64,000 nucleotides of DNA from Fusobacterium paranimalis. GTDB lineage: Bacteria > Fusobacteriota > Fusobacteriia > Fusobacteriales > Fusobacteriaceae. A model generated the notes under the pieces. That model ran no database searches and was not told where the DNA came from. It saw nothing but the letters and a program-made list of their open reading frames with translations. The position numbers and the translations under genes are program-made. The stretch spans positions 767,389 through 831,388 of the forward strand of contig OZ256152.1 of the NCBI GenBank assembly GCA_965278035.1. Direction: 5' to 3'. Positions 51 through 35,742 of this stretch are shown here, one piece after another (within the stretch, counting starts at the first letter, position 1; each line of letters begins with the position of its first letter).

Positions 51-938
51 TTAAAATTTATACTTAAAACTTGTAGTATAAACACTTTCGTAATTTCTAT
101 TATTTAAACTTTTTCTAACTTCTCCTCCTAAAAATACCTCAAAAGTTTCTTTTTTAGCTGTTACTCCTACTTTTATCCCTAATTTTTCTTTATCTTCTTT
201 TTTACTACTATCTTTAAAAGTATATTTATAGCTAGTTTCTATACTAGGAACTACGCTCATATCATATATTTCATATTCTTTTTGATACTTTAATGAAATT
301 TTGCCATCAGTTTTTCTTACTTTTTCTTTATTTTCTCTTATGGCATTAAATTCTAAATCATAAGAAAATTTACCCTCTAAATCATATAAATAGAAATCTT
401 GCCCATAAGCTGCTGTTAAACCTATATATTCTTTCTTCAAATTTTTTAAACTACTTTTATTCTTTAATGTTTGCTTCATATATATTGGAGATATATACAA
501 TCTCTCATCTTCTTTTTGTATTCCAAAAATTAAATTTATCTGATGTTTATTCCCTGAAAATCTTTCATCTTCTTTAGAATAATTCATCTTATATGAATTA
601 AAATTAATTCCATATACAGTTTCATCATAATTATTTAAAATTGAAACTCCTCCACCAATATTATTTACTTTATCAACTGATAAATAAGACAGATAAGGAG
701 TAATTTCTATATCCTTATCCAAATCTTTTTCTATAAAGAACTTATGTGCAATAGAATTAACATTATCTATTGTTAAATAACTATCTTTATGCAAGATATT
801 CTTTTTCTCCTTTAAATTAACACCAGATAGATTAACATTTGCATTTAAAAATCCTCTTCCATCATTTTCTACTTCCATTTCTGCAAACACAGAAATAGAT
901 AAGATTAAACCTAATATTCCACATTTTTTTATATACAT
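51..938 (-). CDS. Outer-membrane beta-barrel protein (signal peptide, C-terminal ...FKYKF)
   Basis: The N-terminus is hydrophobic and signal-like (GILGLILSISVFA). The sequence shows alternating amphipathic beta-strand character and ends in an aromatic residue (F), as outer-membrane beta-barrels typically do. It is divergent from the ABC importer operon, and motif 1 lies in its 5' leader. Confidence 0.45.
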   Translation of the reverse strand: MYIKKCGILGLILSISVFAEMEVENDGRGFLNANVNLSGVNLKEKKNILHKDSYLTIDNVNSIAHKFFIEKDLDKDIEITPYLSYLSVDKVNNIGGGVSILNNYDETVYGINFNSYKMNYSKEDERFSGNKHQINLIFGIQKEDERLYISPIYMKQTLKNKSSLKNLKKEYIGLTAAYGQDFYLYDLEGKFSYDLEFNAIRENKEKVRKTDGKISLKYQKEYEIYDMSVVPSIETSYKYTFKDSSKKEDKEKLGIKVGVTAKKETFEVFLGGEVRKSLNNRNYESVYTTSFKYKF

Positions 939-987: not shown

Positions 988-1227
988 TTATTTATTTTTA
1001 ATTTCTTTTAATAGCTTTTCAAACTCTTTCTTGATTTCAACTTCATTTACTGCTACATTAAATCCTGATTTAAAAAAATAAAACTTAATTTTTTCTAAAT
1101 ACTCAATTTGTATATCAGTTAAATTTTGAAAAATATTACTTTCTATTTCAGCTAATTCTTTCATAATTTCAGAATAAATATTGTAAAAATATATATCATA
1201 TGTAACATCTATTTTATTTTTCTTCAT
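988..1227 (-). CDS. Hypothetical small protein
   Basis: 79-aa ORF with an upstream AAGGAG-like Shine-Dalgarno sequence. No recognisable domain. Confidence 0.3.
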   Translation of the reverse strand: MKKNKIDVTYDIYFYNIYSEIMKELAEIESNIFQNLTDIQIEYLEKIKFYFFKSGFNVAVNEVEIKKEFEKLLKEIKNK

Positions 1228-1579
1228 AAATATCTTCTCCTTTTACTCTATAAATTAAAATTAAATTGACTTCTTAAAAAAGTATATAATTTACTATGTT
1301 TTATGTCAAGAAAATGAACGAATAACTCATCAAATGATACTTTTAGGAAATTTTCTTTTTATTAAGATTATATCATTTATTTTATATATCTAACTACTAA
1401 AAAACATTTTCTTTAATACTTATCTATAAAAATTTATTTATATGCTATACAAAATAAAAAAATAAATATTTTTTTAATATATTATAATATTTTGATAATT
1501 TAATCTTTACAAAATCAAGATTAGTGTATATAATATAAAAGGTAGATTATAATAGAACAAAAAAATTAGGAGGAGTGTT

Positions 1580-2722
1580 ATGAGATTAAAAACAATACTT
1601 AAAAGTATTTTTATAGTTCTATGTTTTTCTTTTTTATTCATTAGTTGTGGAGAAAAAAAGGAAACAGAAGAAGTTGTAAATGATACAGCAGAAAAAATTA
1701 CTTTTATAGATTTAGCAGGAAGAGAGGTTACTTTAGATAAACCAGCTGATCGTATTTTCTTAGGATTTTATGAAGAATCTTACTTAGCTGTCGCTAAAGA
1801 TTTTAGTAAAGTTGTTAGTATTTCAAAAGCAGAATGGGCAGATTTTTTTACAGGACAATATAAGGCTTATGAAGAACAAATGCCTTCTATTAAAGATATG
1901 ATAGATACAGGTTCTATATATAAAGCTTCTTTTAGTATGGAAACTTTATTAAATTCAAGACCTGAAGTTGCTATTTTAGCCCCATTTCAATATGAAACCT
2001 TAGCAGAAAATATCAAAAAGTTAGAAGATTCTGGAATTAAAGTAGTTGTAATAGATTATAATTCACAAACTTTAGAAAAACATATGCAAAGTACAAGAAT
2101 CTTAGGAATGATAACTGGAAATCAAGAAAGAGCAGAAAAATTAGCTTTAAATTATGAAAAAGCAGTAAAAGAAGTAGAAGAAAGAGTTGCAAAAGTTGAT
2201 CCTAAAAAACGTGTTTATATAGAATTAGGAAATTTAGGACCAAAAGAAATCGGTAATAGTTATGGAGATTATTTATGGGGAAGTTTAGCAAAATCAGCAG
2301 GAGGAAATAATATTGCAGAAGGAAAAGTTGAAAGTTATGGACCTTTAGATCCTGAATTTATTTTATCTTCTAATCCTGAAATGATATTATTTGCTGGTTC
2401 ACGTTGGTCTAATGATGCAGGAGATAGAGTTTTAATAGGATTTAATGTAAATCCAGAAGAAACTTGGGCAAGAATAAAACCATATCTTGAAAGAGCTGGT
2501 TGGGATAAACTAGATGCAGTAAAAAATGGACAAGTTTTTGCAGTGGATCATGGTGGATTAAGAAGTATTTATGATTATGTTTATGTTCAATATATTGCTA
2601 AATCTTTATACCCTGATTTATTCCAAGATATAGATCCTGTTAAAAATTTAGAAGAATTTTATGGAGAGTATCTTCCAGTTAAACCTAATGGAACATTTAT
2701 GACACAATATCAAGTAAAATAA
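1580..2722 (+). CDS. ABC transporter substrate-binding lipoprotein, FecB/siderophore-B12 (periplasmic binding protein 2) type
   Basis: It has a lipoprotein signal with a lipobox (LFISCGEK). At about 380 aa it fits the two-lobe architecture of iron-siderophore/cobalamin binding proteins. It is followed by a FecCD permease and an ATPase. A strong Shine-Dalgarno sequence (AGGAGG) precedes the start. Confidence 0.75.
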   Translation: MRLKTILKSIFIVLCFSFLFISCGEKKETEEVVNDTAEKITFIDLAGREVTLDKPADRIFLGFYEESYLAVAKDFSKVVSISKAEWADFFTGQYKAYEEQMPSIKDMIDTGSIYKASFSMETLLNSRPEVAILAPFQYETLAENIKKLEDSGIKVVVIDYNSQTLEKHMQSTRILGMITGNQERAEKLALNYEKAVKEVEERVAKVDPKKRVYIELGNLGPKEIGNSYGDYLWGSLAKSAGGNNIAEGKVESYGPLDPEFILSSNPEMILFAGSRWSNDAGDRVLIGFNVNPEETWARIKPYLERAGWDKLDAVKNGQVFAVDHGGLRSIYDYVYVQYIAKSLYPDLFQDIDPVKNLEEFYGEYLPVKPNGTFMTQYQVK

Positions 2723-2814
2723 AAAGCTAACATTGAAGTAAAATATAAAAGAGAAAGGACTATTACAAATTTATTTAATGTAACAGTCCTTTTTCTCTAA
2801 AAGAGGAGGATAGA

Positions 2815-3852
2815 ATGGAACATAAATTAACAGGAGAAGAAATGTATAGGAAGATAAATCAGAAAAGAAGATTAACTTCTTTATTTACATTAATTGCTAT
2901 TTTAATTGCATTATTATTTGATTTATTTATTGGTTCTTCTGGAATGAGTTTAAAAGATATTATTGTAGTGTTGTGGCAAGGTCCTGGTGTAAAAAGTATA
3001 GAAACTTCTATTATTTGGAATATAAGATTACCTATGACTTTAATCTGTTTAACAGTTGGAGCTTCTTTAGGACTAGCAGGAACACAAATGCAAACAATTT
3101 TAGCAAATCCTTTAGCAAGTCCTTATACATTAGGAGTATCTTCAGCAGCAGGATTCGGGGCAGCTATTGCATTTATTTCAGGTTTTCCTTTTAAAAATAT
3201 GCCTTGGATAAATGCACCTTTTATGGCATTTATGATGACATTGACAGGAACTATGGCAATTTATTTTTTAGGAAAAGTAAAAGGAATGCGTGCTCAATCT
3301 ATGGTACTTTTTGGAATTGTAACACATTTCTTTTTCCAAGCACTGTTATCTTTGGTTCAATTTCGTTCTACACCAGAAGTAGCAGGACAAATTGTCTATT
3401 GGATGTTTGGTAGTTTATTAAAAGCTACTTGGGTAGGAGTATTTGCAAGTGGTTTTATTTTTATTTTATGTGCTTTATTACTTTCACGTTATGCTTGGAA
3501 GTTAACAGCATTGTCTGCAGGAGAAGAAAGAGCAAAAAGCTTAGGAATTGATACAGATAGAGTTAGATTGCATGTATTTTTAATAAGTTCTTTACTTACA
3601 GCAGGAGCAGTCGCTTTTGTTGGAACTATTGGCTTCATAGGCTTAGTAGCACCTCATTTTGCAAGATATTTTGCAGGAGAAGATCAAAGATATTTAGCTC
3701 CAATGGCTTCTTTATTTGGAGTTCTTCTAATTACATTTGCTTCTATTTTGGCAAAACTTATAATTCCAGGAATAATTATTCCAATTGGAATTGTTACATC
3801 TTTAGTAGGAGTTCCATTCTTAGTATTTTTAATTATAAGGAAAGGTGTTTAA
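2815..3852 (+). CDS. FecCD-family ABC transporter permease
   Basis: 345 aa with about 9-10 predicted TM segments. Typical FecCD/BtuC length and hydrophobicity pattern. Sits between the binding protein and the ATPase. Confidence 0.8.
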   Translation: MEHKLTGEEMYRKINQKRRLTSLFTLIAILIALLFDLFIGSSGMSLKDIIVVLWQGPGVKSIETSIIWNIRLPMTLICLTVGASLGLAGTQMQTILANPLASPYTLGVSSAAGFGAAIAFISGFPFKNMPWINAPFMAFMMTLTGTMAIYFLGKVKGMRAQSMVLFGIVTHFFFQALLSLVQFRSTPEVAGQIVYWMFGSLLKATWVGVFASGFIFILCALLLSRYAWKLTALSAGEERAKSLGIDTDRVRLHVFLISSLLTAGAVAFVGTIGFIGLVAPHFARYFAGEDQRYLAPMASLFGVLLITFASILAKLIIPGIIIPIGIVTSLVGVPFLVFLIIRKGV

Positions 3853-3853
3853 T

Positions 3854-4618
3854 ATGTTACAGTTAGAAATTAAAAATATTGCAGTCAATTATGGAAAAAA
3901 AGAAGTAATAAAAGATGTTAGTTGTATTTTTAATGGAGGAGATGTAATATCTCTTATTGGACCTAATGGAACAGGAAAAACAACTATTTTAAAAGCAATT
4001 GCAAAATTAATTAGTCATCATGGTGAAATTAAAATTATACAGGATTCAGAAGTAAAAACGTTTAGAGAAAGTATTACCTATGTTCCTCAAATGTCAGTCA
4101 ATATAGTAAATTTAACTGTTTTTGAAATGGTACTTTTAGGAAGAGTTAAAGATTTAACATGGAAAGTAGAAAAAGTACATTTAGATGCAGTTGCTCAAAT
4201 TTTAGAAGAATTGCATTTAACTCCTTTGAGTTACACTAAGTTTTCTAGTTTAAGTGGAGGACAAAAGCAAATGGTTATTATGGCACAAGCTCTAGTATCT
4301 GCTCCAAAAGTATTGCTTTTAGATGAACCAACAAGTGCTTTAGATTTAAAGCATCAGTTACAAGTAATGGAAATTGCAAGAAATTATACAAAGAAAACAA
4401 ATGCTATTACAATACTTGTATTACATGATATTGCATTAGCAACTAGATATAGTGATCAATTATTGTTACTTCATGAAGGATATTCTATGAAACAAGGAAC
4501 AGTCCAAGAAGTTATTAGACCAGAACTATTAGAAAAAGTATATGAAGTAAAATTGGATGTTAGCCGTAGTGAAAAAGGATATATTACAGTAACACCAATT
4601 TCTACTATTAATGAATAG
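3854..4618 (+). CDS. ABC transporter ATP-binding protein (FecE/FepC-like)
   Basis: Walker A GPNGTGKTT, ABC signature LSGGQ and Walker B LLLDEPTSALD. The track start (3845) is GTG. The ATG at 3854 follows the permease stop and an AGG Shine-Dalgarno sequence. Confidence 0.9.
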   Translation: MLQLEIKNIAVNYGKKEVIKDVSCIFNGGDVISLIGPNGTGKTTILKAIAKLISHHGEIKIIQDSEVKTFRESITYVPQMSVNIVNLTVFEMVLLGRVKDLTWKVEKVHLDAVAQILEELHLTPLSYTKFSSLSGGQKQMVIMAQALVSAPKVLLLDEPTSALDLKHQLQVMEIARNYTKKTNAITILVLHDIALATRYSDQLLLLHEGYSMKQGTVQEVIRPELLEKVYEVKLDVSRSEKGYITVTPISTINE

Positions 4619-4629
4619 AGGTGGAAATT

Positions 4630-6033
4630 ATGATTTCATTAATACAGTTTTTCTCTTCATCTGTTTTATTGAAACAGGAAAAAACAGAACAAGAGATCCC
4701 AGATAAAAAAACAATAAATAAAGAATATTGGAAAGTAGCATTTCCAGCTGCAATAGAGGGAGTTTTACTAAACTTAATGTTACTTGCTGATTTAATTATG
4801 GTAGGAATGTTAGGTATAGAAAAAGCAGCAGCAGTTGGTATTGTAAGCCAACCAAAAATGATTTTACAAATGATTGTTAGTGCAGCAGGTATTGCAATAA
4901 CTGCAATTGTAGCAAGGAGAAAAGGTGAAGGAGATGAAGAAGGATTAAACAGTTGTATTAAGCAATCTCTTTTATTATTAGGACTTTTATATTTTCTTTT
5001 TGTGTGTCTGAGTTTTATTTTTTCTAAAAATATTGTTTCATTTGCAGGAGCTAATGAAGATTATATAGAATATGCAAGTATTTATTTTCAATACATTGCA
5101 CTTTCTGTTTTTTTTAAGGCTCTATGTGTTGTATTAAGCTCTGCACAAATTGGAGTTGGAAATACAAAAATAGTTTTAATATCAGGAATGATTGGAAATG
5201 CTTTAAATGTGCTTTTAAATTATCTTTTAATTTTTGGAAAATATGGATTTCCTGAAATGGGAATACAAGGAGCTGCTATTGCTACTGTTATTGGAAATGC
5301 GGTTATTTTTGTTATACTTCTATATTCTGTTACAAAAGGTGATTATGGAATCAATATTCTAAAAAAAGGAAGTTATCATTTTACTAAAAAAGTATTAGCT
5401 CCACTTCAAGAAATTGGGACAAACTCTTTCTTAGAACATATTTTTGAAAGAATAGGTTTATTTATTTTTGCTAGAATGATAGCAAGTCTTGGGACAGTTG
5501 CAATGGGAACACATCACTATTGTATTCTTTTATGGGATTTATATTATTATTTTGGAGTTGGAATGAGTTCTGCTAGTGCTTCTTTTACAGGAAGAAAATT
5601 AGGAGAAAAAAGGAAAGACTTGGCTATTCTATATATGAGAGCTGCACAATATTCAGGTTTGTGGATTTCTATTTTTGTAGGGATTATTTTTTATCTGTTA
5701 AAAAATTCTATTTTTTCTCTAATGATTTCAGATGAGCGAGTAATATTATTAGGAAGTAGTGTTATGATGATTATTTCTTTTTTAATTATTCCTCAAACAC
5801 AGGCACAGGTAACAGCTGGAGTATTGCGAGGGGCAGGAGATAATCGTTTTATTGCGATTTATTCTTTATTTATTAGTGCAATATTACGTCCTTGTTTAGC
5901 ATATATATTTGCTTTCGTTTGGAAACTTGGATTGGTAGGAATTTGGATAGCTTTTTTCAGTGATGAATTCTTAAAAATGTTATTAGCACAATATAGGATT
6001 CAAAAAGGAATTTGGTTACAGAAAAAAATATAA
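4630..6033 (+). CDS. MATE-family efflux transporter
   Basis: About 468 aa with about 12 TM helices and the two-half internal repeat typical of NorM/MATE proteins. The track start is GTG (4621). The ATG at 4630 is preceded by a GAGGTGG Shine-Dalgarno sequence. Confidence 0.55.
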   Translation: MISLIQFFSSSVLLKQEKTEQEIPDKKTINKEYWKVAFPAAIEGVLLNLMLLADLIMVGMLGIEKAAAVGIVSQPKMILQMIVSAAGIAITAIVARRKGEGDEEGLNSCIKQSLLLLGLLYFLFVCLSFIFSKNIVSFAGANEDYIEYASIYFQYIALSVFFKALCVVLSSAQIGVGNTKIVLISGMIGNALNVLLNYLLIFGKYGFPEMGIQGAAIATVIGNAVIFVILLYSVTKGDYGINILKKGSYHFTKKVLAPLQEIGTNSFLEHIFERIGLFIFARMIASLGTVAMGTHHYCILLWDLYYYFGVGMSSASASFTGRKLGEKRKDLAILYMRAAQYSGLWISIFVGIIFYLLKNSIFSLMISDERVILLGSSVMMIISFLIIPQTQAQVTAGVLRGAGDNRFIAIYSLFISAILRPCLAYIFAFVWKLGLVGIWIAFFSDEFLKMLLAQYRIQKGIWLQKKI

Positions 6034-6078
6034 GTATTTTATAAAAATTTTTAAAGAAAAGAAGGAGGGTATATAAAT

Positions 6079-6870
6079 ATGTCAAAATCATTATTATTTG
6101 ATTTAAAAGTATTAGAATTTAAATTGAAAGAATCTCTTAAATTATATGAAAATACCAAAATAGAGGCGAACTTTGAACTGCTTAAAACTAATATAGATGA
6201 ATTATGCTCTTTTATTATAAAGAAAGAAAATCATTTAGCCTTTTTTCAAACTGCTGAAAATGAAGATATTAGAGCATATGTTATATCTATTAGAGATTTA
6301 TCTACTAAAATACTTGGTATTATTGAAAAAGAAGAAGCTAGAAAAATATTAGAAGATGCTAATAGTTGTTTTCAATACGGTGAAGAACTCAAACTTACTG
6401 TAAAACAAGAAATTCATGATTATAAAATAACTTCACAAGATCATATTTTGTTTGTAGGCTCTGGGTCTATGCCTATCACTGCATTCACTATTGCAAAAGA
6501 AACAGGAGCTGAAATTACTTGTGTAGATATTGACAAGGAAGCTTTAGACTTATCTAAAAAAGTAGCAATAAAATTAGGATTTCCCAATATCATATTTGAA
6601 AATGAATTATTTTCTTTATCCTTAGATAAGTATTCACATATTATTATTGCTTCTTTAGTTCCTTTAAAATGTGAAATTTTAGAAAATATTCGTAAGACTA
6701 TTCCTGTTACAACAAAATTAATTTTACGTTATGGAAATGAATTAAAAGAATTATTTAACTATCCAATATATCAAAAAGAAATAAAAACTTTTATAAAAAC
6801 AGTTATTAGAGATAGAGATTTTATTTACGATACTCTTCTATTAGAAAAGGAGACTAACTATGGAAAATAA
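6079..6870 (+). CDS. Nicotianamine synthase-like protein (CntL-like metallophore synthase)
   Basis: 263 aa. Contains the motif ILFVGSGSMPITAFTIA, which closely resembles the conserved (V/I)AF(V/I)GSGPLPLTS SAM-binding motif of nicotianamine synthases. That motif and the CntL size of about 270 aa are recalled from memory. A strong Shine-Dalgarno sequence is present. The stop overlaps the next gene start. Confidence 0.65.
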   Translation: MSKSLLFDLKVLEFKLKESLKLYENTKIEANFELLKTNIDELCSFIIKKENHLAFFQTAENEDIRAYVISIRDLSTKILGIIEKEEARKILEDANSCFQYGEELKLTVKQEIHDYKITSQDHILFVGSGSMPITAFTIAKETGAEITCVDIDKEALDLSKKVAIKLGFPNIIFENELFSLSLDKYSHIIIASLVPLKCEILENIRKTIPVTTKLILRYGNELKELFNYPIYQKEIKTFIKTVIRDRDFIYDTLLLEKETNYGK

Positions 6871-8164
6871 CAATATCAATAATGTATTAATTTTTGGAAA
6901 TGGTCCAGTTGCTCTTCATTTATACCTAACTTTAAAAAAGCAAGGTTCTAATAAAGTTGGTTTAAAAATTAGAGATAGTTTAAAAGCTCAAAAGTTTTAT
7001 GAAGAATTGAAAAAAGAACAATTTATTTTAGAAGGAAAGGTTAAAACGCAATTACCAGCAATTGCTTATGGGAAAACTGAAGTAAAACCTATTATTCAAA
7101 GTTCAAAAGAAATACTAGACGAATGGGAAACTTTTATTTTAGCAACTCCTTGTGATGCTTATTCTGACTTATTGGAAAATATCCCATTTACCTCACTGAA
7201 AAAATTGAAAACAATTGTTTTAGTTTCACCAGAGTTAAGTTCTGCTTATTTTATTAAAATTATATTAGAAAAAAGAGGTAGAAATGATATTAATATTATT
7301 AGTTTTTCTAATTATTTTGGAGCAACTAATTTAGCAGAAGGAACTTATACTAAAATTATTATTAATGCCTTAAAAGGAAAGATTTACCTTGCTTCTACTA
7401 ATGTAAATGATACAGAAATTTTAAAATGGGTAAAATATTTAAAAAATATGAAAGTAGAAGGAATTATTTGTAAAAATCCACTTATAGCTGAATCTAAAAA
7501 TATAACTATTTTTGTTCATTCACCATTTTTATTTAATGATGTAAGTTTAAAACAGATTTTTCTCAAGGATAGTCAAAAAAGGTATATTTATAAGCTATAT
7601 CCAGAAGGACCTATTACAAAGTATTCTATTCAAGATATGGTTAATTTATATCATGAAATTATGGAACTGTATAAAAAGATGAAAATAGAAACTTTTAATT
7701 TATTAGAATTTTTAAACGATAGCTACCCTGTATTGGAAGAATCATTACATTTAGATGAAATTAAAAGTTTCACAGATAAGCCCAAAAATGAGCAGATATT
7801 TCTTCTTTATGTGAGATACTGTTGTATTCTAATAGATCCTTATTCAGTTCCTGATGAAGAGGGGAAATATTTTGATTTTTCAAAAGTAGAATATTCTAAA
7901 ATATTTTTGGATAAAGATAGAAAATGGTGTATCCCTCGTAGACCTGCTGAAGATTATTCAAAATTAAATTTATTATTTTATTTAAGTAAATATTATAATA
8001 CAACAAATAGTACAATGGAAAAGTGTTTAAAAAAATATGAATTATTTTATAATGAGTTAGTTTTAGAAAAAGGAATAGAAAATATTAATAAAAGTTGCTA
8101 TCTTCATCAAAGAGATAATGAAGCTAAAAACTTATATTCTTATATAAACAATTTTATTCTTTAA
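6860..8164 (+). CDS. Opine (staphylopine/pseudopaline-type) dehydrogenase-like protein (CntM-like)
   Basis: 434 aa. N-terminal dinucleotide-binding motif (LIFGNGPVALHL). The start overlaps the NAS-like gene by 11 nt, indicating translational coupling. Size and position match the cntL-cntM pairing. Confidence 0.5.
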   Translation: MENNNINNVLIFGNGPVALHLYLTLKKQGSNKVGLKIRDSLKAQKFYEELKKEQFILEGKVKTQLPAIAYGKTEVKPIIQSSKEILDEWETFILATPCDAYSDLLENIPFTSLKKLKTIVLVSPELSSAYFIKIILEKRGRNDINIISFSNYFGATNLAEGTYTKIIINALKGKIYLASTNVNDTEILKWVKYLKNMKVEGIICKNPLIAESKNITIFVHSPFLFNDVSLKQIFLKDSQKRYIYKLYPEGPITKYSIQDMVNLYHEIMELYKKMKIETFNLLEFLNDSYPVLEESLHLDEIKSFTDKPKNEQIFLLYVRYCCILIDPYSVPDEEGKYFDFSKVEYSKIFLDKDRKWCIPRRPAEDYSKLNLLFYLSKYYNTTNSTMEKCLKKYELFYNELVLEKGIENINKSCYLHQRDNEAKNLYSYINNFIL

Positions 8165-8232
8165 TTTAGATTATCCCATTTAATATATTCATTATTAGTA
8201 ATCAATAATATTAAAAAAGGAAGTGAAAATAA

Positions 8233-9387
8233 ATGAAAAAATTTAATTACTTTACATCAGAATTTGTTTCACCAGGACATCCAGATAAAATTTCAGATCA
8301 AATATCAGATGCAATTTTAGATGCTTGTTTAAAAGATGATCCTAATTCAAGAGTTGCCTGTGAAGTTTTTTGTACTACTGGATTAGTTGTTGTTGGAGGA
8401 GAAATAACAACCTCAACATACATTGATGTACAAGATATAGTTAGAAAAAAAATTGATGAAATTGGTTATAGACCAGGAATGGGATTTGATTCTAACTGTG
8501 GTACTTTAAGCTGTATCCATGCACAATCACCTGATATAGCTATGGGTGTAGATGTTGGAGGTGCAGGAGATCAAGGAATAATGTTTGGAGGTGCTGTTAG
8601 AGAAACAGAAGAACTTATGCCATTAGCACTTGTATTATCAAGAGAAATATTAGTAAAACTTACTAATATGATGAAAAATAAAGAAATTAAATGGGTAAGA
8701 CCAGATCAAAAATCACAAGTTACACTAGCTTATGATGAAAATGGAAAAGTTGACCATGTTGACTCTATTGTTGTATCAGTACAACATGATGAAGATGTTA
8801 GTCACAATGAAATTGAAAAAACAGTTATAGAAAAAGTTGTTAAACCTGTTTTAGAAAAATATAACTTAAGTTCTGATAATATAAAATACTATATAAATCC
8901 TACTGGAAGATTTGTAATTGGAGGACCTCATGGAGATACAGGTGTTACTGGTAGAAAAATTATAGTTGATACTTATGGTGGATATTTTAGACATGGTGGA
9001 GGAGCTTTCTCTGGTAAAGATCCTTCAAAAGTTGATAGATCAGCTGCTTACGCTGCTAGATGGGTAGCAAAAAATATTGTTGCAGCAGAACTTGCTGACA
9101 AATGTGAAATTCAATTATCTTATGCAATAGGAATTCCTAAACCAGTATCAATTAAAGTTGACACTTTTGGAACTTCAAAAGTTGATGAAGATAAAATTTC
9201 AGAAGTTGTATCAAAAGTATTTGATTTATCTCCTAGAGGAATCGAAAAAGCTCTTGAATTAAGAGAAGGAAAATTCAAATACCAAGATTTAGCAGCCTAT
9301 GGTCATATAGGAAGAACTGATATTGATACCCCTTGGGAAAGATTGAACAAAGTTGAAGAATTGATGAAATACATCAATAAATGTTAA
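8233..9387 (+). CDS. metK: S-adenosylmethionine synthetase
   Basis: Classic MetK N-terminus ([25 protein letters not shown]), the [19 protein letters not shown] motif and a 384-aa length. Confidence 0.95.
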
Positions 9388-9437
9388 TTATTTCCTAAAT
9401 AACTTTTTTAAACCTAACACCTCTTATTTATATAAAA

Positions 9438-9482
9438 AAGCCAATTGTAGATTTTTTTTAATTTTACATTTGGCTTTTTTTG
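9438..9482 (+). terminator. Putative rho-independent terminator after metK
   Basis: Imperfect stem aagccaattgta / tacatttggctt followed by a T7 run. The loop is long, so confidence is moderate. Confidence 0.4.
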
Positions 9483-9781
9483 TAAATAATATCCCTCATA
9501 GGTATATTCTTTTACTATTCCCAAAGAATTAAAACCTTTTTTCTTAGAATAGATCTTCATTTTTAATGAGGTTAATTTTATAATATTCATAAAAAATCAT
9601 AAAGAAGGAGGGGAAATTAAATTATTGAAATGAAAATAAAAAATAAGTGAAAACTACATTCTAAATCTTAGTTTAAAAATTTAGCTAGTAATAAACTATT
9701 TTTTACTTCATTTGTAAGTTTACAACAATCCTTCTGTTATATAATTCTTAACTTTGTAGTTAAGAGTTACTATTATTACTT

Positions 9782-19813: not shown

Positions 19814-21844
19814 TTACACCACCTCTTCCTCATAGTCATCATAGTCTTCTAAATTCTCCATTCTAATCATTTCTTTATATGCTTCCATATCTTGTAATTC
19901 TTCTAATACCTTTCCATCAATAATCTCATCTTCTGGTGGTCTTTCATAAATTCCTGATACTTTAGGTATTCCATAAGTTCTAAAAGTTTTAGTTTTAAAG
20001 TATTCTTCTTCATAAAAACGAATCTTATATGCCATAAGAGGATACATTCCTGCAATAGATATAATATTTCTCTTATCTCCAAGTTTATTTCTTACTTCTT
20101 CTGGTGTTAGAAGTTTTCTTACTTGATTACTTTCAGATAGATTAGCTTGTCCTAAACTATATGCTTTCCAAGACTTATTTCTTACTTTTATAGTAGTATC
20201 TCCTAAAAGTTCTGAGATTTGTCTAGGTGTTTCACTATCAAGTGGTGTAGGAGCATAGAAAACTGTTGTAGCACAGTTATCAAATATACTACTCTTATCT
20301 CCATAATTTTTTCTAATTTGATTTAGAGCTTGAGCTATTATTACTGCTTTCATTCCATATCCTGCAATGTATGCAAGAGCTTTTTCTAAAATTGGGATTG
20401 TTCCAAATGCTGCAAACTCATCTAGCATCAATAGAAGTTTATGTTTATGTACTTCTTCTCCTGATTCAAAATCCATTTCAGGTGCTAAAACTCCTATTAC
20501 TTGAGTAAGTAACATTTTTAAAAGAGGTGCTAATGTAGCCATATCTTGTGATTCTACAACAACATAAAATGATACTGGTGTTTCATAGTCCATTAAGTCT
20601 TTTATTCTAAAATCAACATTAGTTGTATTTTTCCTAATAATAGGATCTTTAAACAATGTTAATTTAGACATAACTGATGATATAACAGAAGCTCTTTCTT
20701 TAGGGTCTTTGTTAAGCATTTCTGCTGCTGTTCTTGCTACCACTGGATGTACTCCATCTGGTATTCCTGACATTTGTTGTTTAGAATATATCTTTTTCCA
20801 ACTCTTTATACATTCCAAATCTAATGTTAAAGGAATAGTCATTAAATCTTGCCAAGCATCATCTAGTGGTCTTGAAGTATCTGTAAGAAAATCTACTATA
20901 TCTCCTATGCTTCCCATTCTTCCTTCATTCTTTGCTTTATATAGAACATATAAGATAAGTCCAACAAGCAATGAACTTGCACTATTAGCCCAGTGATCTC
21001 TTTGTTTGTTTTCTCCTGGATCAGTTAAAATATCTGCAATAACTGTTGCTCCTTTTACTTCTTTTACTGTTTCCAGTTCTACCTCTGCAAGTGGGTTATA
21101 TGATACACTTCCATCAAAGCTATATGGTCTAAATTTAAGTATTTTTTGACCAAGAACTTTCATTCTATATCCAGCTGTAAAAGCATAGTTTTCGCCTTTC
21201 ATATCAAATACAAATATTGAGCCTAACCAGTTTAAAAGTGTAGGTATAATAATCCCCACTCCCTTTCCTGAACGAGTTGGAGCTACCACTGCTATATGTG
21301 TTTTTAGATTATCTATAATAGTTTTTAATTTTGATAGTGATCCCTTTTTATATTCTCCTGTTCTTCCTAAAATAACTCCATCTGCATACTTAGGATAATC
21401 ACTTAAAAGCCCAGCCTTTTTCCATTCATTTAACTTTGCCCATCTTGCCGTTCCGTGTGAATCTTCTTTTACTTTGCTTCTCTTTAATAAAATTACAAGC
21501 ATTAAAATACTAATAATATTTAAGAACAATCCTATTTTTCTCATCACTGATGATATATACAAAATCTTTTTTATATTTGGAATAAATGCAAGTTTTAGAA
21601 TAAGAAATGGACTATATAGATTATGAAATATTGGCTCTCCAAGTATTTCAGGATTATATCTATAATGCATAGCTATTTTTTGTGAGCCCCAAAAGTATGC
21701 CATAATTAGTATTAGAAAAGCAAAAATAACTCCAACAAATCTAACTATACTTAACTTATCTTTTATTTCTTCAAAATTTTCTGATACATAATATACAAGA
21801 GAGAAAATAATTATTAAAATTACTGAAAATATAAGGTAAAACAT
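19814..21844 (-). CDS. VirD4/TraG-family type IV coupling protein
   Basis: N-terminal TM helices, Walker A VVAPTRSGKGVG, and a 676-aa length. Confidence 0.85.
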   Translation of the reverse strand: MFYLIFSVILIIIFSLVYYVSENFEEIKDKLSIVRFVGVIFAFLILIMAYFWGSQKIAMHYRYNPEILGEPIFHNLYSPFLILKLAFIPNIKKILYISSVMRKIGLFLNIISILMLVILLKRSKVKEDSHGTARWAKLNEWKKAGLLSDYPKYADGVILGRTGEYKKGSLSKLKTIIDNLKTHIAVVAPTRSGKGVGIIIPTLLNWLGSIFVFDMKGENYAFTAGYRMKVLGQKILKFRPYSFDGSVSYNPLAEVELETVKEVKGATVIADILTDPGENKQRDHWANSASSLLVGLILYVLYKAKNEGRMGSIGDIVDFLTDTSRPLDDAWQDLMTIPLTLDLECIKSWKKIYSKQQMSGIPDGVHPVVARTAAEMLNKDPKERASVISSVMSKLTLFKDPIIRKNTTNVDFRIKDLMDYETPVSFYVVVESQDMATLAPLLKMLLTQVIGVLAPEMDFESGEEVHKHKLLLMLDEFAAFGTIPILEKALAYIAGYGMKAVIIAQALNQIRKNYGDKSSIFDNCATTVFYAPTPLDSETPRQISELLGDTTIKVRNKSWKAYSLGQANLSESNQVRKLLTPEEVRNKLGDKRNIISIAGMYPLMAYKIRFYEEEYFKTKTFRTYGIPKVSGIYERPPEDEIIDGKVLEELQDMEAYKEMIRMENLEDYDDYEEEVV

Positions 21845-21845
21845 A

Positions 21846-22316
21846 TCAATCTGTTTTTATAGAAAGTCCTGTATCATAGGTTTTTGAAAGCTCTTTATCT
21901 CTTTCTAACTTTCTATTCCAACCCTTATTCTCCTCTAATCTTGTTAAGTCATTTTTTAAATATATTCCCTCTTGTGTTAATCTATTTTGTATTTCTTTTG
22001 CATTTTCTAACTCTCGTGGTGTTAAGATAAGCTCTGTATCTTTTCTTAATAGTAATTGCTCTTTTATCTTTTGAACTGCTTTTAATATAAATAACTCAAA
22101 TTCTAATTTCTCTTTATTCCTATTAAAAATTTCTCTATCTTGCCAAAGTCTTAAATTAGTTAAAAGTAATATAATAATTGAAATCGTAAATTTTAATCTT
22201 CTTATCTCTTCTTCCCGTTTTATTTTCTCTCTAATTAATCTTTTTCTCTCTTCTTCATCAATAACTCTTCTTTTTTCTTTTTCAAGATAGTAATACAGCT
22301 CAAACATAGGTATCAC
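21846..22316 (-). CDS. Hypothetical coiled-coil protein
   Basis: 156 aa, Glu/Arg/Lys-rich and helical, with one central TM segment. Confidence 0.3.
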   Translation of the reverse strand: MIPMFELYYYLEKEKRRVIDEEERKRLIREKIKREEEIRRLKFTISIIILLLTNLRLWQDREIFNRNKEKLEFELFILKAVQKIKEQLLLRKDTELILTPRELENAKEIQNRLTQEGIYLKNDLTRLEENKGWNRKLERDKELSKTYDTGLSIKTD

Positions 22317-23437
22317 TATTCCTTATATGGCTCTAATATTAAATCAGCATTTACAATTATGTTAAATCTTGAACCTGGTTTAATTGTGATTGTGGGTTTT
22401 ATATTTAAAATCCTTTCTGACAAAGAATCTCCTATATCAATTATTCTCTCTCCTGCACCAGAAGCCATAGCATTTTCCCAACTTTGTATTCTTGTATCTT
22501 TACTCCTATTGACTAAGGCTGCTCCTCCTCCCAAAACAGAAGATAATATAACTGATTTTAAAAGTTCTATATTATGATTATTAACTCTACCCTTCATTCC
22601 AGCATAAGCACTTAAATCTACTCCTGGAAAGTTTTCAAGTGATATTGATTTTCCATTAGGAAAAATAAGTCTTTGCCATATTATTAAAATTCTATCTTGA
22701 CCATAAGCAACTCCACTGCTATATTCTCCTATTATTTTTGTTCCTTTGGGAATTAATAAATATTTTCCTCTTATAGAATCATATACATTTTCTCTAACAA
22801 GTCCTACCATTTTTCCTTCAATTTGTGAATCTACTCCACTTACTAAGATACCTGGTATAAAACTTCCTGCTTTTAATTCATAAGGTGATTTCACTTCTTT
22901 TATTGAATATTTATTATATTCAGTATCTTCTGTAATATTTTTACTTTCTTCTGTTGAAGTAGATGTATCAGCCTTTATATTATTATTTTTGCTGATAATA
23001 GAGTAATCTATATCAGAAAGCCTTGACTGCATTTCTTCTTGTAGTAGTTGAGTATAGTATTCTTCCATCTTTATATTTGGACCTAAAATACTATCATCTA
23101 CTTTCTTTTCTTCTATTTCAGTTTTCACAAGCTCTCTATATGTTTTTTCTTTTTCCTCTTCTTCAATTTTCTTTAATTTTGAATAATCACTTTCAAGAAA
23201 ATCAAAATTAGGAGCTGTCTTTTTAACTACTTCTTCATTCTCTTCTTGAGATTTTTGAATATTATTAGCTTTCTTCACTTTAATTGAAGCACTAATAAAA
23301 GCATAGGTTATTACAACAATTACTACTGCTATAAGGGCTAAGACAAAACTTTTCTTTATTTTTACAGAAGGTTTTTTGATAACTTTTTTATTTACATCTT
23401 CTTGTGGAGTTTCTTTCTCTTTATTTTCTTCTGTCAT
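22316..23437 (-). CDS. VirB10/TrbI-like protein
   Basis: N-terminal TM anchor, a charged linker, and a C-terminal TrbI-like beta-barrel region (GSFIPGILVSGVDSQ...GQDRILIIWQRLIFPNG). Confidence 0.7.
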   Translation of the reverse strand: MTEENKEKETPQEDVNKKVIKKPSVKIKKSFVLALIAVVIVVITYAFISASIKVKKANNIQKSQEENEEVVKKTAPNFDFLESDYSKLKKIEEEEKEKTYRELVKTEIEEKKVDDSILGPNIKMEEYYTQLLQEEMQSRLSDIDYSIISKNNNIKADTSTSTEESKNITEDTEYNKYSIKEVKSPYELKAGSFIPGILVSGVDSQIEGKMVGLVRENVYDSIRGKYLLIPKGTKIIGEYSSGVAYGQDRILIIWQRLIFPNGKSISLENFPGVDLSAYAGMKGRVNNHNIELLKSVILSSVLGGGAALVNRSKDTRIQSWENAMASGAGERIIDIGDSLSERILNIKPTITIKPGSRFNIIVNADLILEPYKE

Positions 23438-23450
23438 CTATATCAACTCC

Positions 23451-24263
23451 TCATTTTTTCCTTTTTATTATTACTTTTTTTCTATCCAGTACAAGCTCTG
23501 CCTTATCAAAAAGTCTATCTACAACAAGTTGTTTACCTTGTCCTTTTATTCTGTAATTTACAACATAGCCCTCTTTGCTATCATCTAAAATATATAGAAC
23601 AGGTAATTCTTGTAAATTTTCCTTCAAGATGATTACAGTTTTTTTACCATCATCAAATACTTGTGAGGGAGAAAATCTATATTTATTTGTACTTAATGTA
23701 TAATCATAATTTAAATTATCCATATCTATCTTTTCCTCATTTTCTTCCTTTAGCTTTAAATCATTTTGAATCTTTATCTGTTTTACCATTTCATCATCTG
23801 GATATTGCCATTTTATAAGAGGGTTATACAAATTTTTATCTGATATTAAATTTATTTGATAGGTTCTTTTATCAGTGTTTATAATTAAATTTGTTTTTAA
23901 CCCAATAGAAGTAGGCTTTATATAGATTACTTCTCTTTCTCCATCACTTGAACCTGTTCTAGCTGTTGCTCTTCTCCATCTAGCGGTATCTCCCCCACCA
24001 ACAAAACCAACACTTTCTCCTGGCTGTAATAAAATACTTGTTATATAATTTACTCTTGTGTAAATTGTGTACATAGAATCTTCGCTATATGTAAATACAG
24101 TTTGAACTCCTTCTTTTGCTCCCTTATATCCACTAACTATTTTTGCAGGACCAGGAGTTATTTCTGTAAGGACCTCTTTATTATCTTGAATAGTACTATC
24201 TGAAAAAGCATTAAAACTCATTAAAAATATTCCAATAATAGCCAATATACATTTTTTCTTCAT
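23451..24263 (-). CDS. VirB9/TrbG-like protein
   Basis: Signal peptide, 270 aa, beta-rich. Sits in the canonical B9-B10 order. Confidence 0.5.
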   Translation of the reverse strand: MKKKCILAIIGIFLMSFNAFSDSTIQDNKEVLTEITPGPAKIVSGYKGAKEGVQTVFTYSEDSMYTIYTRVNYITSILLQPGESVGFVGGGDTARWRRATARTGSSDGEREVIYIKPTSIGLKTNLIINTDKRTYQINLISDKNLYNPLIKWQYPDDEMVKQIKIQNDLKLKEENEEKIDMDNLNYDYTLSTNKYRFSPSQVFDDGKKTVIILKENLQELPVLYILDDSKEGYVVNYRIKGQGKQLVVDRLFDKAELVLDRKKVIIKRKK

Positions 24264-24274
24264 TTTTTTCCTCC

Positions 24275-25012
24275 TTAATCTGCAATTCCTAAACTTCCCT
24301 TTGTCTTATTCCAACTATTTTCTTTTACATTTTCCTTTTCATTTGCTAGTTCTACTGCTTTTATAACCTTTGATAGTACCTCTGTATTAGTTATATATAC
24401 AGTTTTTGTTTTTGCTTCTTTTTCAATATCATTTCCTTTTTCATCTTTTGTTATATATTTATATGGCTCTTTTAATGGTATTCCAACTTCAAATACTAAC
24501 TTATTATTTGTAAGTTCTTCCCTAGCTTTTTTTATTTGCTCATTTGAAAGCCCTGTTATACTTTCCATTTCCTTTGTTGTTAAACTAGAAAAGGCAAGGT
24601 TTTTCTTAGATGTTTCTATTAATGAAAATATAGCTATTGCTTCATTTGAAAGATTTTTTATATTATTTATTCTTTCTGCATATTTTAGGAAGTTAGTAGT
24701 TAATTTTTCCATATCAATTTTTTTCATTTCCTTAGAATCATTTTGAAAGATATCTTTATCAATATATAGCCTTTGTTTTAAAGATTGTCTTATCTCTCCT
24801 GTTTCTAAATCAACATTTCCTATATTTTGCTCAACACTGTTATAGAATAGTTTTCCTTCTTTTAAAAGTTCACCTTTTGCTGCTTTAATCTCATCTGTTG
24901 TAAGTCCACTTCCCTTTGCTAAGGCAACAGTAGAAATTGTTGTGTACCCCACATTTATAATTCCTTGTTGATTCTTTATAATCTCATATACCTTTTTTGC
25001 ATTTGCATTCAT
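24275..25012 (-). CDS. Hypothetical protein with C-terminal ...GSLGIAD motif
   Basis: 245 aa with no signal peptide. It shares a C-terminal motif SWNK..G.LGIAD with the next ORF. Confidence 0.35.
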   Translation of the reverse strand: MNANAKKVYEIIKNQQGIINVGYTTISTVALAKGSGLTTDEIKAAKGELLKEGKLFYNSVEQNIGNVDLETGEIRQSLKQRLYIDKDIFQNDSKEMKKIDMEKLTTNFLKYAERINNIKNLSNEAIAIFSLIETSKKNLAFSSLTTKEMESITGLSNEQIKKAREELTNNKLVFEVGIPLKEPYKYITKDEKGNDIEKEAKTKTVYITNTEVLSKVIKAVELANEKENVKENSWNKTKGSLGIAD

Positions 25013-25022
25013 AATATCCTCC

Positions 25023-25415
25023 TTAGTCTGCTATTCCTATTCCTTGACTTCTTTTATCCCAACTATTTACTTTTTCATTAGAAATTTCATATTTATTATT
25101 CTTAATGTTTTCATTTAAATTATCAATTTTCCAATCACTTCCATAATATGAAAATTCAATCTCATTAAAAGATTTAGCTTCCTTAACAGCTTTATAAAAA
25201 TCATCTTCCAATATTGCAAATGAAAACTCATCATACTTATATTCCATAGTTTCAATTGTATCTCTCAAATCTTCAATAAAACTTTTATTGTATACTTCTC
25301 CAAATTTATCTTCAATTTTTTCTAATATAAACTGTGAAGCATAATAAATATTTTTATCATCAAATTCAACTCCTCCAATTTCTCCCTTAAATTCTTGAAT
25401 TATATTACATTCCAT
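25023..25415 (-). CDS. Hypothetical acidic protein with C-terminal ...GIGIAD motif
   Basis: 130 aa. The C-terminus SWDKRSQGIGIAD parallels the preceding ORF. Confidence 0.35.
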   Translation of the reverse strand: MECNIIQEFKGEIGGVEFDDKNIYYASQFILEKIEDKFGEVYNKSFIEDLRDTIETMEYKYDEFSFAILEDDFYKAVKEAKSFNEIEFSYYGSDWKIDNLNENIKNNKYEISNEKVNSWDKRSQGIGIAD

Positions 25416-25417
25416 TT

Positions 25418-26095
25418 TTAACTCCCTTCAGTTGTTATATGAAAATCAACTATATACACTCCTAATGGATTTCTATCTAATTCTTGCAATGTCTTAGGTT
25501 GTTCAATAGAAATAGTAAATATCCCTACTAATGTCTTATTTAAAAGAATATCTCCACTAGAAGAATATAAAATTTCTCTCCACTTAATTTGATAAGTATT
25601 TTTTGTTCCAGCAACTTTTATCGCACTATTTATTTGAACATCTCTTGTATACTTTTCTTGTATAAGGTTTGATAAATTTTCTTCTAAGGAAATTTCTTTT
25701 AATTTCTCTTGCATAGGCTCAGTTAATAAATTCATTGCCTTTGAATAAAGAGAATTCTGTACAACGGGATCTAGCGAAATCCATCTAAAATTTCTAACAA
25801 ATTCTTTTAATGAATAGATTAGAAACTCTTCCTTTGGCTCATAGTTCTTTTGATATGCTGGATTAATAGCCTTAGCATTACCAGCTTCATCTACTTCAAT
25901 AACATAAGGAATTAGTGTACTTCTTGTTGACAGATATATATTTCCAGATAGTGTTAAAAAAGCTATTCCCAAACAAATAAATGCTAATATCTTCCAAGTA
26001 TGAAGTGCTTTTGAAATATTTAAAAGCTGGTTTTCAAATGCTTCTACTGCCTTTTCATAATTTGTAAATTTCTTATTATTTCTCACATTTACCAC
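25418..26095 (-). CDS. VirB8/TrbF-like protein
   Basis: 225 aa with a single N-proximal TM helix followed by a periplasmic domain. Size and position are typical of VirB8. Confidence 0.5.
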   Translation of the reverse strand: MVNVRNNKKFTNYEKAVEAFENQLLNISKALHTWKILAFICLGIAFLTLSGNIYLSTRSTLIPYVIEVDEAGNAKAINPAYQKNYEPKEEFLIYSLKEFVRNFRWISLDPVVQNSLYSKAMNLLTEPMQEKLKEISLEENLSNLIQEKYTRDVQINSAIKVAGTKNTYQIKWREILYSSSGDILLNKTLVGIFTISIEQPKTLQELDRNPLGVYIVDFHITTEGS

Positions 26096-27138: not shown

Positions 27139-28140
27139 CTATTTTTTTATAAGGCAATGTAAATATTCAATTGTTGATGATTTTTTATAGTTTCTATTTT
27201 TATCTTTATCAGATTTAAACCTTTTGTAATTAGTAGCAAAACACCTATATTCTCCATATTTTTCTAAAATTCTTTTTATATCTTCCAACTTCATTAAACC
27301 TTCATCGTTATAGCTTAAAAATATATATTTAAAATCTGCATTTGATATTAATTCTTCAAATACCTGATTGACCTGAGGTTTTGAGCAAAATTTACTTTTT
27401 TGTTTATTACAAGCTCTTAAACCTGTTTTTCCTTTAATAACTGGATTATCATATCTTGATATGGTTTCTAATAAGTGGTAATTCGTTGAATATTGTCTTG
27501 CATTATATGGAGGATCTAAATATAGTATATCTCCCTTTACTTTTTTTATTAAAGAATTAACATCCTCATTATATACTTTTCCTTTCTTATTTCCTTCAAT
27601 AATAGGAAGTAATTCAAGCTTAAAATTTTTTTCTGCTCTTTTTTTTAAAGATTTTAAAAATGCACCATAAATTGAAACTGTATTAGCATATTTATCTATT
27701 GAATTTATTAAACTTGCTAAGAAATAATTATACTGATGTTTATCTATTTCTTTATTCTTATAAAGTTTTTCTAATTCCTGTCTAATAGCATCACATTTTT
27801 TCCCATTAAAATCTGAAAAATAATTTCTTTCACTCCCTGAACCCATACAATAATTATTATAAATGAAGCCTTCTTGTCCTTTAAGTGAATTTAAATGCTC
27901 TAATAATTTTGTATTCATTGGATAATTATTCTCTATATAATGCTTATTTAAAATATAACTATAATGCTGTATATCATTAGATATAACCTTATAACCCATC
28001 TTCTTAAATTCATTTCCTATTACTCCTGTACCTGCAAATAAATCTCCAAATACCTTATCTTCCTTATCTAACCTTGAAACCTCTAAAATCTTTTCTTTTA
28101 TAAATGGTTTCAAAGAAAGTTTTGAACCTATATAATTCAT
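27139..28140 (-). CDS. N6-adenine DNA methyltransferase (Dam-like, alpha class)
   Basis: Motif I DLFAGTG near the N-terminus and motif IV LYLDPPYN towards the C-terminus. Confidence 0.8.
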   Translation of the reverse strand: MNYIGSKLSLKPFIKEKILEVSRLDKEDKVFGDLFAGTGVIGNEFKKMGYKVISNDIQHYSYILNKHYIENNYPMNTKLLEHLNSLKGQEGFIYNNYCMGSGSERNYFSDFNGKKCDAIRQELEKLYKNKEIDKHQYNYFLASLINSIDKYANTVSIYGAFLKSLKKRAEKNFKLELLPIIEGNKKGKVYNEDVNSLIKKVKGDILYLDPPYNARQYSTNYHLLETISRYDNPVIKGKTGLRACNKQKSKFCSKPQVNQVFEELISNADFKYIFLSYNDEGLMKLEDIKRILEKYGEYRCFATNYKRFKSDKDKNRNYKKSSTIEYLHCLIKK

Positions 28141-35732: not shown

Positions 35733-35742
35733 TTTTTTCCTC

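Follow-up and report, generated by a model that had tools for sequence, protein, structure and literature searches.

A predicted opine-metallophore operon with an extra metK gene on a putative integrative conjugative element of the Fusobacterium nucleatum group

Introduction

All four bacterial opine metallophores characterised so far are built on histidine (PMC7438024). Staphylopine (Staphylococcus aureus CntKLM-ABCDF-E) and bacillopaline (Paenibacillus mucilaginosus) come from clusters that encode the racemase CntK, an Opp/Nik-type importer and an exporter of the major facilitator superfamily. The pseudopaline cluster of the diderm Pseudomonas aeruginosa (CntOLMI) has CntL and CntM without a racemase, uses CntO as TonB-dependent receptor and CntI as EamA exporter, and lacks an inner-membrane importer; the chromosomal yersinopine cluster of Yersinia pestis and Y. 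pseudotuberculosis likewise has no racemase, and combines a FecCD-type ABC importer with an EamA exporter. In this work we analysed a window (the whole stretch of DNA studied, 64,000 nucleotides) of Fusobacterium paranimalis, contig OZ256152.1, positions 767,389 to 831,388 of the forward strand. Positions 1580–9387 of the window likely form a seven-gene operon that makes, exports and re-imports an opine-type metallophore, is carried by an integrative conjugative element (ICE) of the F. nucleatum group, and includes an extra, riboswitch-free metK gene, for S-adenosylmethionine (SAM) synthetase.

A cluster of this type was described by Morey and Kehl-Fie (2020, mSystems, PMC7438024), whose CntM similarity network contains a fusobacterial "cluster 8" with FecCD import and MatE export, comprising, in their Table S1, F. 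nucleatum subsp. vincentii 4_1_13, F. nucleatum subsp. animalis 7_1, F. necrophorum and F. mortiferum. FecCD-type permeases are encoded by clusters 3, 6, 8, 9 and 10 of that survey, and racemase-less clusters with FecCD-type import, a type of importer also present in the yersinopine cluster, are one of the two main cnt cluster types (PMC7438024). The F. paranimalis locus agrees with cluster 8 in its genes and in their order, with a PF01497/PF01032/PF00005 importer, a MatE protein, cntL directly upstream of cntM and no racemase, and in the organisms concerned, and NCBI names the exact proteins 'opine metallophore biosynthesis dehydrogenase' (CntM) and 'nicotianamine synthase family protein [Fusobacterium]' (CntL). 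This type of locus, with its transporters, and its occurrence in these species have thus been in the literature since 2020, and standard annotation recognises them. An earlier note on this DNA, made from the sequence alone, had taken the locus for a distinct architecture, uncharacterised in the genus, and its list of known importers left out the FecCD type; cluster 8 and the NCBI names pre-empt the first statement, and the yersinopine cluster and one of the two main cnt types correct the second. The main text of the cluster 8 paper has no words starting with metK, conjugati, mobile, horizontal or plasmid, and mentions S-adenosylmethionine only as the CntL substrate; in the literature we found no report of an own metK or of ICE carriage for an opine metallophore cluster, and no paper tying a Fusobacterium ICE to this cluster. 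What seems new, as far as we searched, is the ICE carriage, the riboswitch-free extra metK with its apparently convergent origin, and a possible link to the histidine racemase HisR.

Compared with the pseudopaline system, with which it shares the CntL–CntM pair without a racemase, an alanine at the CntM selectivity position and a diderm host, the Fusobacterium locus has a FecBCD-type importer, a MatE protein, metK and no receptor, and its CntM is ~30–35% identical. It is similar to the yersinopine cluster in its FecCD-type importer and in the absence of a racemase, but the yersinopine CntM has an aspartate (pyruvate) at the selectivity position and its cluster has no metK. With staphylopine and bacillopaline it shares the two-enzyme chemistry; S. 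aureus CntL and CntM are the closest solved structures, and bacillopaline is made with alpha-ketoglutarate, as predicted here.

Results

CntL- and CntM-type enzymes encoded with an importer and an exporter

Seven plus-strand open reading frames (ORFs) of the window's ORF list make up the locus. Family assignments are from profile searches against Pfam and NCBIfam.

1580–2722, plus strand: FecB/FhuD-type (Peripla_BP_2) substrate-binding lipoprotein, 380 aa (PF01497, E=3e-24)
2815–3852, plus strand: FecCD-family ABC permease (PF01032, E=2e-82, full length)
3845–4618, plus strand: ABC importer ATPase (PF00005, ABC_tran, E=9e-28)
4621–6033, plus strand: MatE-family exporter (PF01554, E=5e-48; TIGR00797, 249 bits, cutoff 147)
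6079–6870, plus strand: CntL-like nicotianamine-synthase-family enzyme (NAS, PF03059; NF033601)
6860–8164, plus strand: CntM-type opine dehydrogenase, 434 aa (PF10100, Staph_opine_DH)
8233–9387, plus strand: element-borne MetK SAM synthetase, 384 aa (TIGR01034, 531 bits, cutoff 309; all three MetK domains by Pfam, PF00438, PF02772 and PF02773)

The gaps at the successive junctions are 92, −8, 2, 45, −11 and 68 nt; cntM starts inside the end of cntL, with an 11-nt overlap with the cntL stop, and metK begins 68 nt after cntM, with a ribosome-binding site. The seven ORFs, the overlap and the motif ILFVGSGSMPITAFTIA in the CntL-like ORF had been described in the earlier note and were all reproduced. 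[quoted passage not shown]

The products of cntL and cntM were also compared with the sequences of solved structures. The CntL-like ORF, the weakest Pfam call of the operon, matches NAS (PF03059) with 30.9 bits, for a cutoff of 27.1, and Methyltransf_31 with 27.1 bits. NCBIfam separates the two possibilities well, as the CntL model NF033601 is matched with E=6e-36, versus E=2e-5 for the best methyltransferase model, and the protein aligns with the solved S. aureus CntL (7c7m) over residues 29–232 (E=8e-25), including the Gly-rich SAM-binding sequence VGSGxxP. Its identity to characterised or other cnt-locus CntLs is ~30–45%. CntM matches PF10100 across residues 7–427 of 434 (E=5e-116) and no other family, and it matches the solved staphylopine, pseudopaline and yersinopine dehydrogenases with E=4e-68, 5e-67 and 2e-61, respectively. 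A genome scan over GTDB species representatives, made with a CntM alignment, gave 49 loci, and in all of the 48 complete ones a cntL homologue lies directly upstream of cntM. The earlier note had mentioned that its reading would fail if these ORFs were a generic methyltransferase and an unrelated dehydrogenase, or if their orthologues were not linked; none of this is the case, and the profile and solved-structure matches bear out an opine-metallophore locus in which CntL and CntM are encoded together with an importer of the FecBCD type and an exporter of the MatE family.

The binding protein has a signal peptide with a Cys lipobox (FISC), its top NCBIfam match is a ferrichrome/ferrioxamine binding protein (E=4e-30), and it is the predicted receptor for the metal–metallophore complex. 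The top NCBIfam matches of the ATPase are heme and Fe-dicitrate importer ATPases; other gene callers start this ORF at an ATG three codons further 3' (254 aa). For the MatE gene the ATG at 4630 is chosen by gene callers elsewhere (467 aa), and its product is predicted to be the metallophore efflux pump. Clostridium, Vibrio and a Psychromonadaceae genome have, in their cnt loci, orthologues of the binding protein and permease that are 45–63% identical (45–51% for the binding protein alone), and MatE adjoining cntL was seen only in fusobacterial loci. In the mechanism that we propose, MetK would make SAM, CntL would move the aminobutyrate moiety of SAM onto an amino acid, most likely histidine, and CntM would reductively condense the CntL product with alpha-ketoglutarate using NAD(P)H. 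The MatE protein would export the metallophore, and the metal complex would be caught by the FecB-type lipoprotein and imported via the FecCD permease and its ATPase; the operon itself encodes no passage through the outer membrane.

Predicted product

Residues G154-A155-T156 of CntM align with G149-D150-T151 of S. aureus CntM, which places Ala155 at the alpha-keto-acid selectivity position (D150 in S. aureus); A155 and H220 are invariant in the Fusobacterium/Clostridium clade, as seen for A155 in 17 members. An aspartate at S. aureus position 150 specifies pyruvate and an alanine alpha-ketoglutarate (PMC7438024), and with this rule Ala155 predicts that CntM uses alpha-ketoglutarate, which would put the product in the pseudopaline/bacillopaline class.

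No CntK-like racemase was found in the six frames of the 64-kb window by tblastn with the Staphylococcus CntK of locus L037 at E<=10, apart from two chance fragments, and the fusobacterial and clostridial cnt loci gave no significant tblastn match up to 10 kb from cntM. The earlier note had deduced from the lack of CntK that the product derives from an L-amino acid. The absence from the window stands, but the deduction is unsafe, given that F. nucleatum possesses HisR (FN1732), an unlinked and cofactor-independent histidine racemase, an orphan without an assigned role (PMC11602996); the absence of a linked racemase is therefore no proof of an L-amino acid. The discoverers of HisR noted that strain ATCC 25586 is devoid of cntL and cntM (PMC11602996). 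The product may thus be pseudopaline-like (L-His) or bacillopaline-like (D-His), and the accessible literature gave no residue-level rule for reading a preference for D- or L-histidine from a CntL sequence. Histidine itself is the most likely CntL substrate by analogy with the four characterised systems only.

That the product is something other than a histidine-derived zincophore, made from another amino acid or serving mainly the uptake of iron, nickel or cobalt, as would suit a siderophore/B12-type importer, is rather unlikely. In its favour, the binding protein is closest to a ferrichrome/ferrioxamine model, CntL is only ~30–45% identical to others, a Fur-like box (TGATATTCATTATCA) precedes the locus of a clostridial relative, and staphylopine itself is broad-spectrum. 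However, no extra modifying enzyme is present among the operon ORFs, histidine is used for every opine metallophore characterised, and a FecCD-type importer is the normal partner of racemase-less cnt clusters (PMC7438024), so that a histidine-derived product remains our preferred reading.

A conjugative element carries the operon

The operon is surrounded in the window by the following genes.

51–938, minus strand: backbone gene orf295, product with a signal peptide and ending in F; no Pfam match
988–1227, minus strand: backbone gene orf79
9782–11916, minus strand: variable cargo slot, with an EamA transporter (PF00892) and a flavin N-hydroxylating monooxygenase (PF13434)
12553–26095, minus strand: conjugation machinery (VirB6/TrbL, primase, VirB4, VirB11, VirD4 coupling protein, VirB10/TrbI, VirB9/CagX and VirB8, by Pfam)
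32717–33907, plus strand: tyrosine integrase (PF00589, E=5e-25), right end of the element
33957–34044, minus strand: tRNA-Leu(CAA), 50 nt from the integrase

The element also encodes a Dam-type methyltransferase (27139–28140), a YhcG nuclease and ParA. The window covers its right end, and the evidence for a relaxase comes from other copies, which have, to the left of the position where the window starts, SLT, S26 peptidase, TopoIII, a MobA/MobL relaxase, an N6/N4 DNA methyltransferase and a 2036-aa helicase. Copies of the element are the only places where homologues of orf295 and orf79 occur; the cnt loci of F. necrophorum and L060 lack them. The genes from orf295 to TrbL other than metK are 95.4–100% identical in DNA sequence among copies (one partial TrbL match of ~90% aside). 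The operon is thus the cargo of a putative ICE integrated at tRNA-Leu.

Such carriage accounts for a distribution that is both patchy and marked by near-identical proteins in different species. The exact CntM is an NCBI protein of F. animalis and F. vincentii, recorded on 887 contigs (indexed in 1437 blocks); complete genomes as well as metagenome contigs with an identical CntM are named F. animalis, F. vincentii and F. nucleatum, and cnt-linked MetK and CntL are also named F. nucleatum. Outside this element, the six genes recur in unchanged order in F. necrophorum ATCC 25286, with 77–94% protein identity, and F. necrophorum is the only Fusobacterium match among the GTDB species representatives. 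The same six-gene order is found in the L060–L063 lineage, whose CntM is 76% identical to that of the window and 90% identical to that of F. necrophorum.

Along the lines of the earlier note, the locus could be read as a chromosomal, genus-specific and previously unseen architecture with an L-amino-acid product. We consider this very improbable. The architecture has been in print since 2020 and the locus is carried by a conjugative element, which refutes the novelty and the chromosomal status, and an unlinked histidine racemase exists in the species group; what speaks for it is that neither the window nor the fusobacterial and clostridial cnt loci have a racemase and that MatE is confined to fusobacteria.

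Two candidates for additional pathway components were rejected. The orf295 product is not retained as an outer-membrane metallophore channel, since the gene travels with the element, is missing from the F. necrophorum and L060 loci and has no Pfam match. The EamA transporter and N-monooxygenase are not retained as pathway exporter and modifying enzyme, since their genes are on the opposite strand, past a terminator, and other copies hold unrelated cassettes at this place.

An extra metK without a SAM riboswitch

CntL consumes SAM stoichiometrically. Upstream of the window metK no SAM riboswitch (RF00162) was detected, with no Rfam match even at E<=1. A first search for MetK homologues was saturated by variants at least 97% identical, and a second one, with the L062 MetK, revealed a second type of copy. 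Every sampled variant 97–100% identical to the MetK of the window is cnt-linked in this element. The second type is the housekeeping MetK (382–383 aa, from entries under the names F. nucleatum or F. hwasookii, encoded amid conserved core genes), which is 94–95% identical in protein sequence to the element MetK and whose gene is preceded by a SAM-I riboswitch (RF00162, 62–67 bits, gathering score 44.4; L073, L074 and L077). These properties suggest that the element carries an additional metK from which the S-box has been lost, and the presence of a second gene in the same genome would follow from the essentiality of MetK and from the core context of the housekeeping copy. Between cntM and metK of the window there is no terminator and there are only weak promoter-like matches, and metK is apparently co-transcribed with cntM. 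With an extra metK that has no SAM riboswitch and is apparently expressed together with cntM, SAM supply would rise with metallophore synthesis and would not be shut off by SAM.

A cntM–metK pair recurs outside this element. In the L060–L063 lineage a 385-aa metK lies 21 nt after cntM, and no riboswitch was found upstream of the cnt-linked metK of L060 and L062. This metK groups with the housekeeping MetK of F. necrophorum (86%) and is 81% identical to the copy of the element. Since each cnt-linked metK groups with the housekeeping MetK of its own clade, and since the two are only 81% identical to each other, the simplest reading is that a host metK entered the operon twice, independently, and recruitment on two independent occasions argues for function rather than accident. 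The evidence strengthens the idea of the earlier note that a neighbouring metK could supply the SAM of the pathway, and supports a functional tie of metK to the locus.

It is unlikely, in our opinion, that metK is a mere passenger, was simply co-captured with the cnt genes, or serves the element, by supplying its DNA methyltransferases or by countering SAM-depleting defences. Such roles would be compatible with the Dam-type methyltransferase (27139–28140) and with the N6/N4 methyltransferase encoded beside the relaxase, with the mosaic alleles, up to 10% divergent, that metK alone displays, and with the fact that the cnt loci of F. necrophorum, of L064 and of the 48 non-fusobacterial species representatives do without a linked metK. 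Against them, the cntM–metK adjacency (21 nt, no riboswitch) recurs outside the element with a copy of different origin, and the lack of a terminator and the weakness of the promoter-like matches between the window cntM and metK, together with the stoichiometric use of SAM by CntL, also speak for a role of metK in the pathway.

Biosynthetic clusters with their own SAM synthetase exist, and metallophore or siderophore loci are carried by ICEs, as for the yersiniabactin island/ICEKp. The locus resembles both, by bundling precursor supply with a SAM-consuming pathway and by moving metal acquisition horizontally.

As a separate observation, metK is the sole polymorphic gene of the module, with 90–99.9% DNA identity versus 97.5–100% for its neighbours (window versus L050–L086). 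The differences sit in clear recombination tracts (nt 12–253, 12–424 or 697–1152), and the donor of the mosaic alleles, which are up to 10% divergent, is not among the sampled sequences. Gene conversion from the resident housekeeping metK is not supported, as the divergent allele has retained the length and C-terminus of the ICE type, and its identity to any of the sampled housekeeping variants does not exceed 92%. In L058, metK is called 10 residues shorter.

Promoter and RNA features

Three features of the plus strand may be relevant to expression of the operon.

1486–1534, plus strand: promoter block, −35 TTTACA at 1506–1511, 17-nt spacer, −10 TATAAT at 1529–1534, with the conserved sequence AATATTTTG upstream
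2750–2796, plus strand: strong stem-loop with a U-rich tract behind it, in the gap between the binding-protein gene and the permease gene (RNAfold −18.9 kcal/mol for 2723–2814)
9439–9481, plus strand: hairpin and T-run after metK (−12.8 kcal/mol stem, then TTTTTT)

The site at 1506–1534 is the best-scoring promoter-like site of the region (11/12), and the promoter block is the sole block conserved among the window, F. necrophorum and the L060 lineage, the rest of the upstream DNA being unalignable. The earlier note had proposed looking for a Zur or Fur box upstream of the operon; instead of a canonical box, only the conserved promoter block and weak dyads came out. The candidate operator dyads are ATTTTG-N15-CAAAAT and TAATCTT-N9-AAGATTA, the latter present only in the ICE version and overlapping the −35 sequence; both are weak in such AT-rich DNA. 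Metal-responsive control of the operon is assumed by analogy.

No terminator-like site was detected on the plus strand between 1580 and 9387, and the hairpin at 9439–9481 is the likely operon terminator. The hairpin at 2750–2796 is possibly a partial terminator or an mRNA stabiliser, which would yield an excess of binding protein over permease. An Rfam match to 'mir-142' at 2731–2816 overlaps this real hairpin and was dismissed as chance (E=0.61).

In Clostridium sp. UBA1056 (L006), the stretch 5' of the cnt binding-protein gene (~6040–6115) contains a near-consensus Fur-type 7-1-7 box, TGATATTCATTATCA, and a second half-site, TGATAATGA, which suggests Fur-family control in this clostridial relative. 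Nothing like this box is found in the fusobacterial cnt promoters.

Discussion

Several observations weigh against the locus being a complete and active metallophore operon in which metK has a role. CntL and CntM do not reach the NCBIfam equivalog cutoffs (124 versus 350 bits for NF033601 and 310 versus 675 bits for NF033600); they thus count as members of the families, without being strict staphylopine equivalogs. The operon ORFs include no outer-membrane receptor, and no canonical Fur or Zur box was recognised upstream of 1580. The assembly accessions retrieved for cnt-linked metK and for housekeeping metK have none in common. F. necrophorum, the L064 lineage and all non-fusobacterial loci are without a linked metK (in the 49 loci of species representatives, of which 48 are non-fusobacterial, no metK occurs up to 10 kb from cntM), and metK is therefore dispensable for the pathway as such. 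In the complete genome CP056001.1 (L050, 7761–9220) no intact MatE gene is called and the sequence aligns only from residue 125, and in a metagenome contig (L084, 3851–4860) cntL–cntM is reduced to fragments of 175 and 161 aa. Finally, we found no published experimental work on the product, metal or expression of a fusobacterial opine metallophore.

The two damaged loci raise the idea that the module is decaying cargo, without current function in most carriers. We regard this as extremely unlikely: in the other sampled copies all operon genes are full length (except metK in L058) and the non-metK genes are 97.5–100% identical in DNA sequence, and the exact CntM recurs on the many contigs mentioned above.

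Combining these elements, we tentatively put forward, as a possibility that we rate below an even chance, a joint model in which the ICE spreads a self-sufficient module in the group, including F. animalis, the riboswitch-free metK was recruited twice, and HisR feeds D-His to CntL, which would give a bacillopaline-like product. The module would then provide a physiological context for the orphan histidine racemase.

The F. nucleatum group, and especially the cancer-associated F. animalis, colonises inflamed and tumour tissue, where host calprotectin withholds zinc and other metals, and opine metallophores are virulence factors under metal withholding in S. aureus and P. aeruginosa. Its carriage by a conjugative element and its high frequency in assemblies would make the module a strain-variable fitness trait, which could account in part for differences among strains. 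In the riboswitch-free metK we see a modest but clean example of a pathway with its own deregulated precursor supply. The ICE carriage, the extra metK and the HisR link make the locus a good experimental target, and are incremental for the field.

Other observations on the element, its surroundings and related loci

The slot between metK and TrbL (9388–12552 in the window) differs among copies (L050–L059, L065–L072 and L084–L086), its content being exchangeable cassettes of small-molecule genes. Its monooxygenase in the window matches PF13434 with E=9e-87, the closest NCBIfam model being 'putative histamine N-monooxygenase' (E=6e-61), and is an O2-requiring enzyme in an anaerobe, encoded in a two-gene cargo cassette. 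Of the cassettes that other copies have at this place, one combines an IS element and LysE with a stand-alone NRPS-like A-T protein (587 aa), a thioesterase and a PPTase, another joins EamA to two radical-SAM proteins, of which one has SPASM, and a third encodes an acetyltransferase and Lys_export together with two radical-SAM proteins, one LAM-like and one B12-binding.

At 34133–34188, on the minus strand, lies the 5' half of a second tRNA-Leu, through the CAA anticodon loop, with a 37/44 nt match to the intact gene next to the integrase. It looks like an integration footprint, in which case the intact copy may come from the element. Core glutamate-fermentation genes are found beyond the right end of the element: the 35139–47184 region contains a 2-hydroxyglutaryl-CoA dehydratase D-component (35743–36891), a BadF/BcrA-type activator ATPase, glutaconate CoA-transferase and a Na+-decarboxylase beta subunit. 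Also to the right of the element (35139–47184 and 63358–63996) are a BspA-type leucine-rich-repeat protein and, at the end of the window, an autotransporter beta-domain.

In F. necrophorum ATCC 25286 the place of metK is occupied by three plus-strand ORFs (L001, 10869–13451), two membrane proteins flanking an ABC-type ATPase with the Walker A sequence GLNGAGKT, and a 276-aa ORF upstream of the binding-protein gene (L001, 3134–3964) reads like a transcription regulator; both were identified by eye. In L064 (2560–14264), MatE-CntL-CntM, with a CntM 66% identical, is accompanied by a divergent Opp/Nik-type importer (SBP_bac_5, two BPD_transp_1 and two ATPases), an exporter/importer pairing outside the two main types of the 2020 survey, and ExbB-ExbD-TonB genes lie ~1 kb downstream of cntM.

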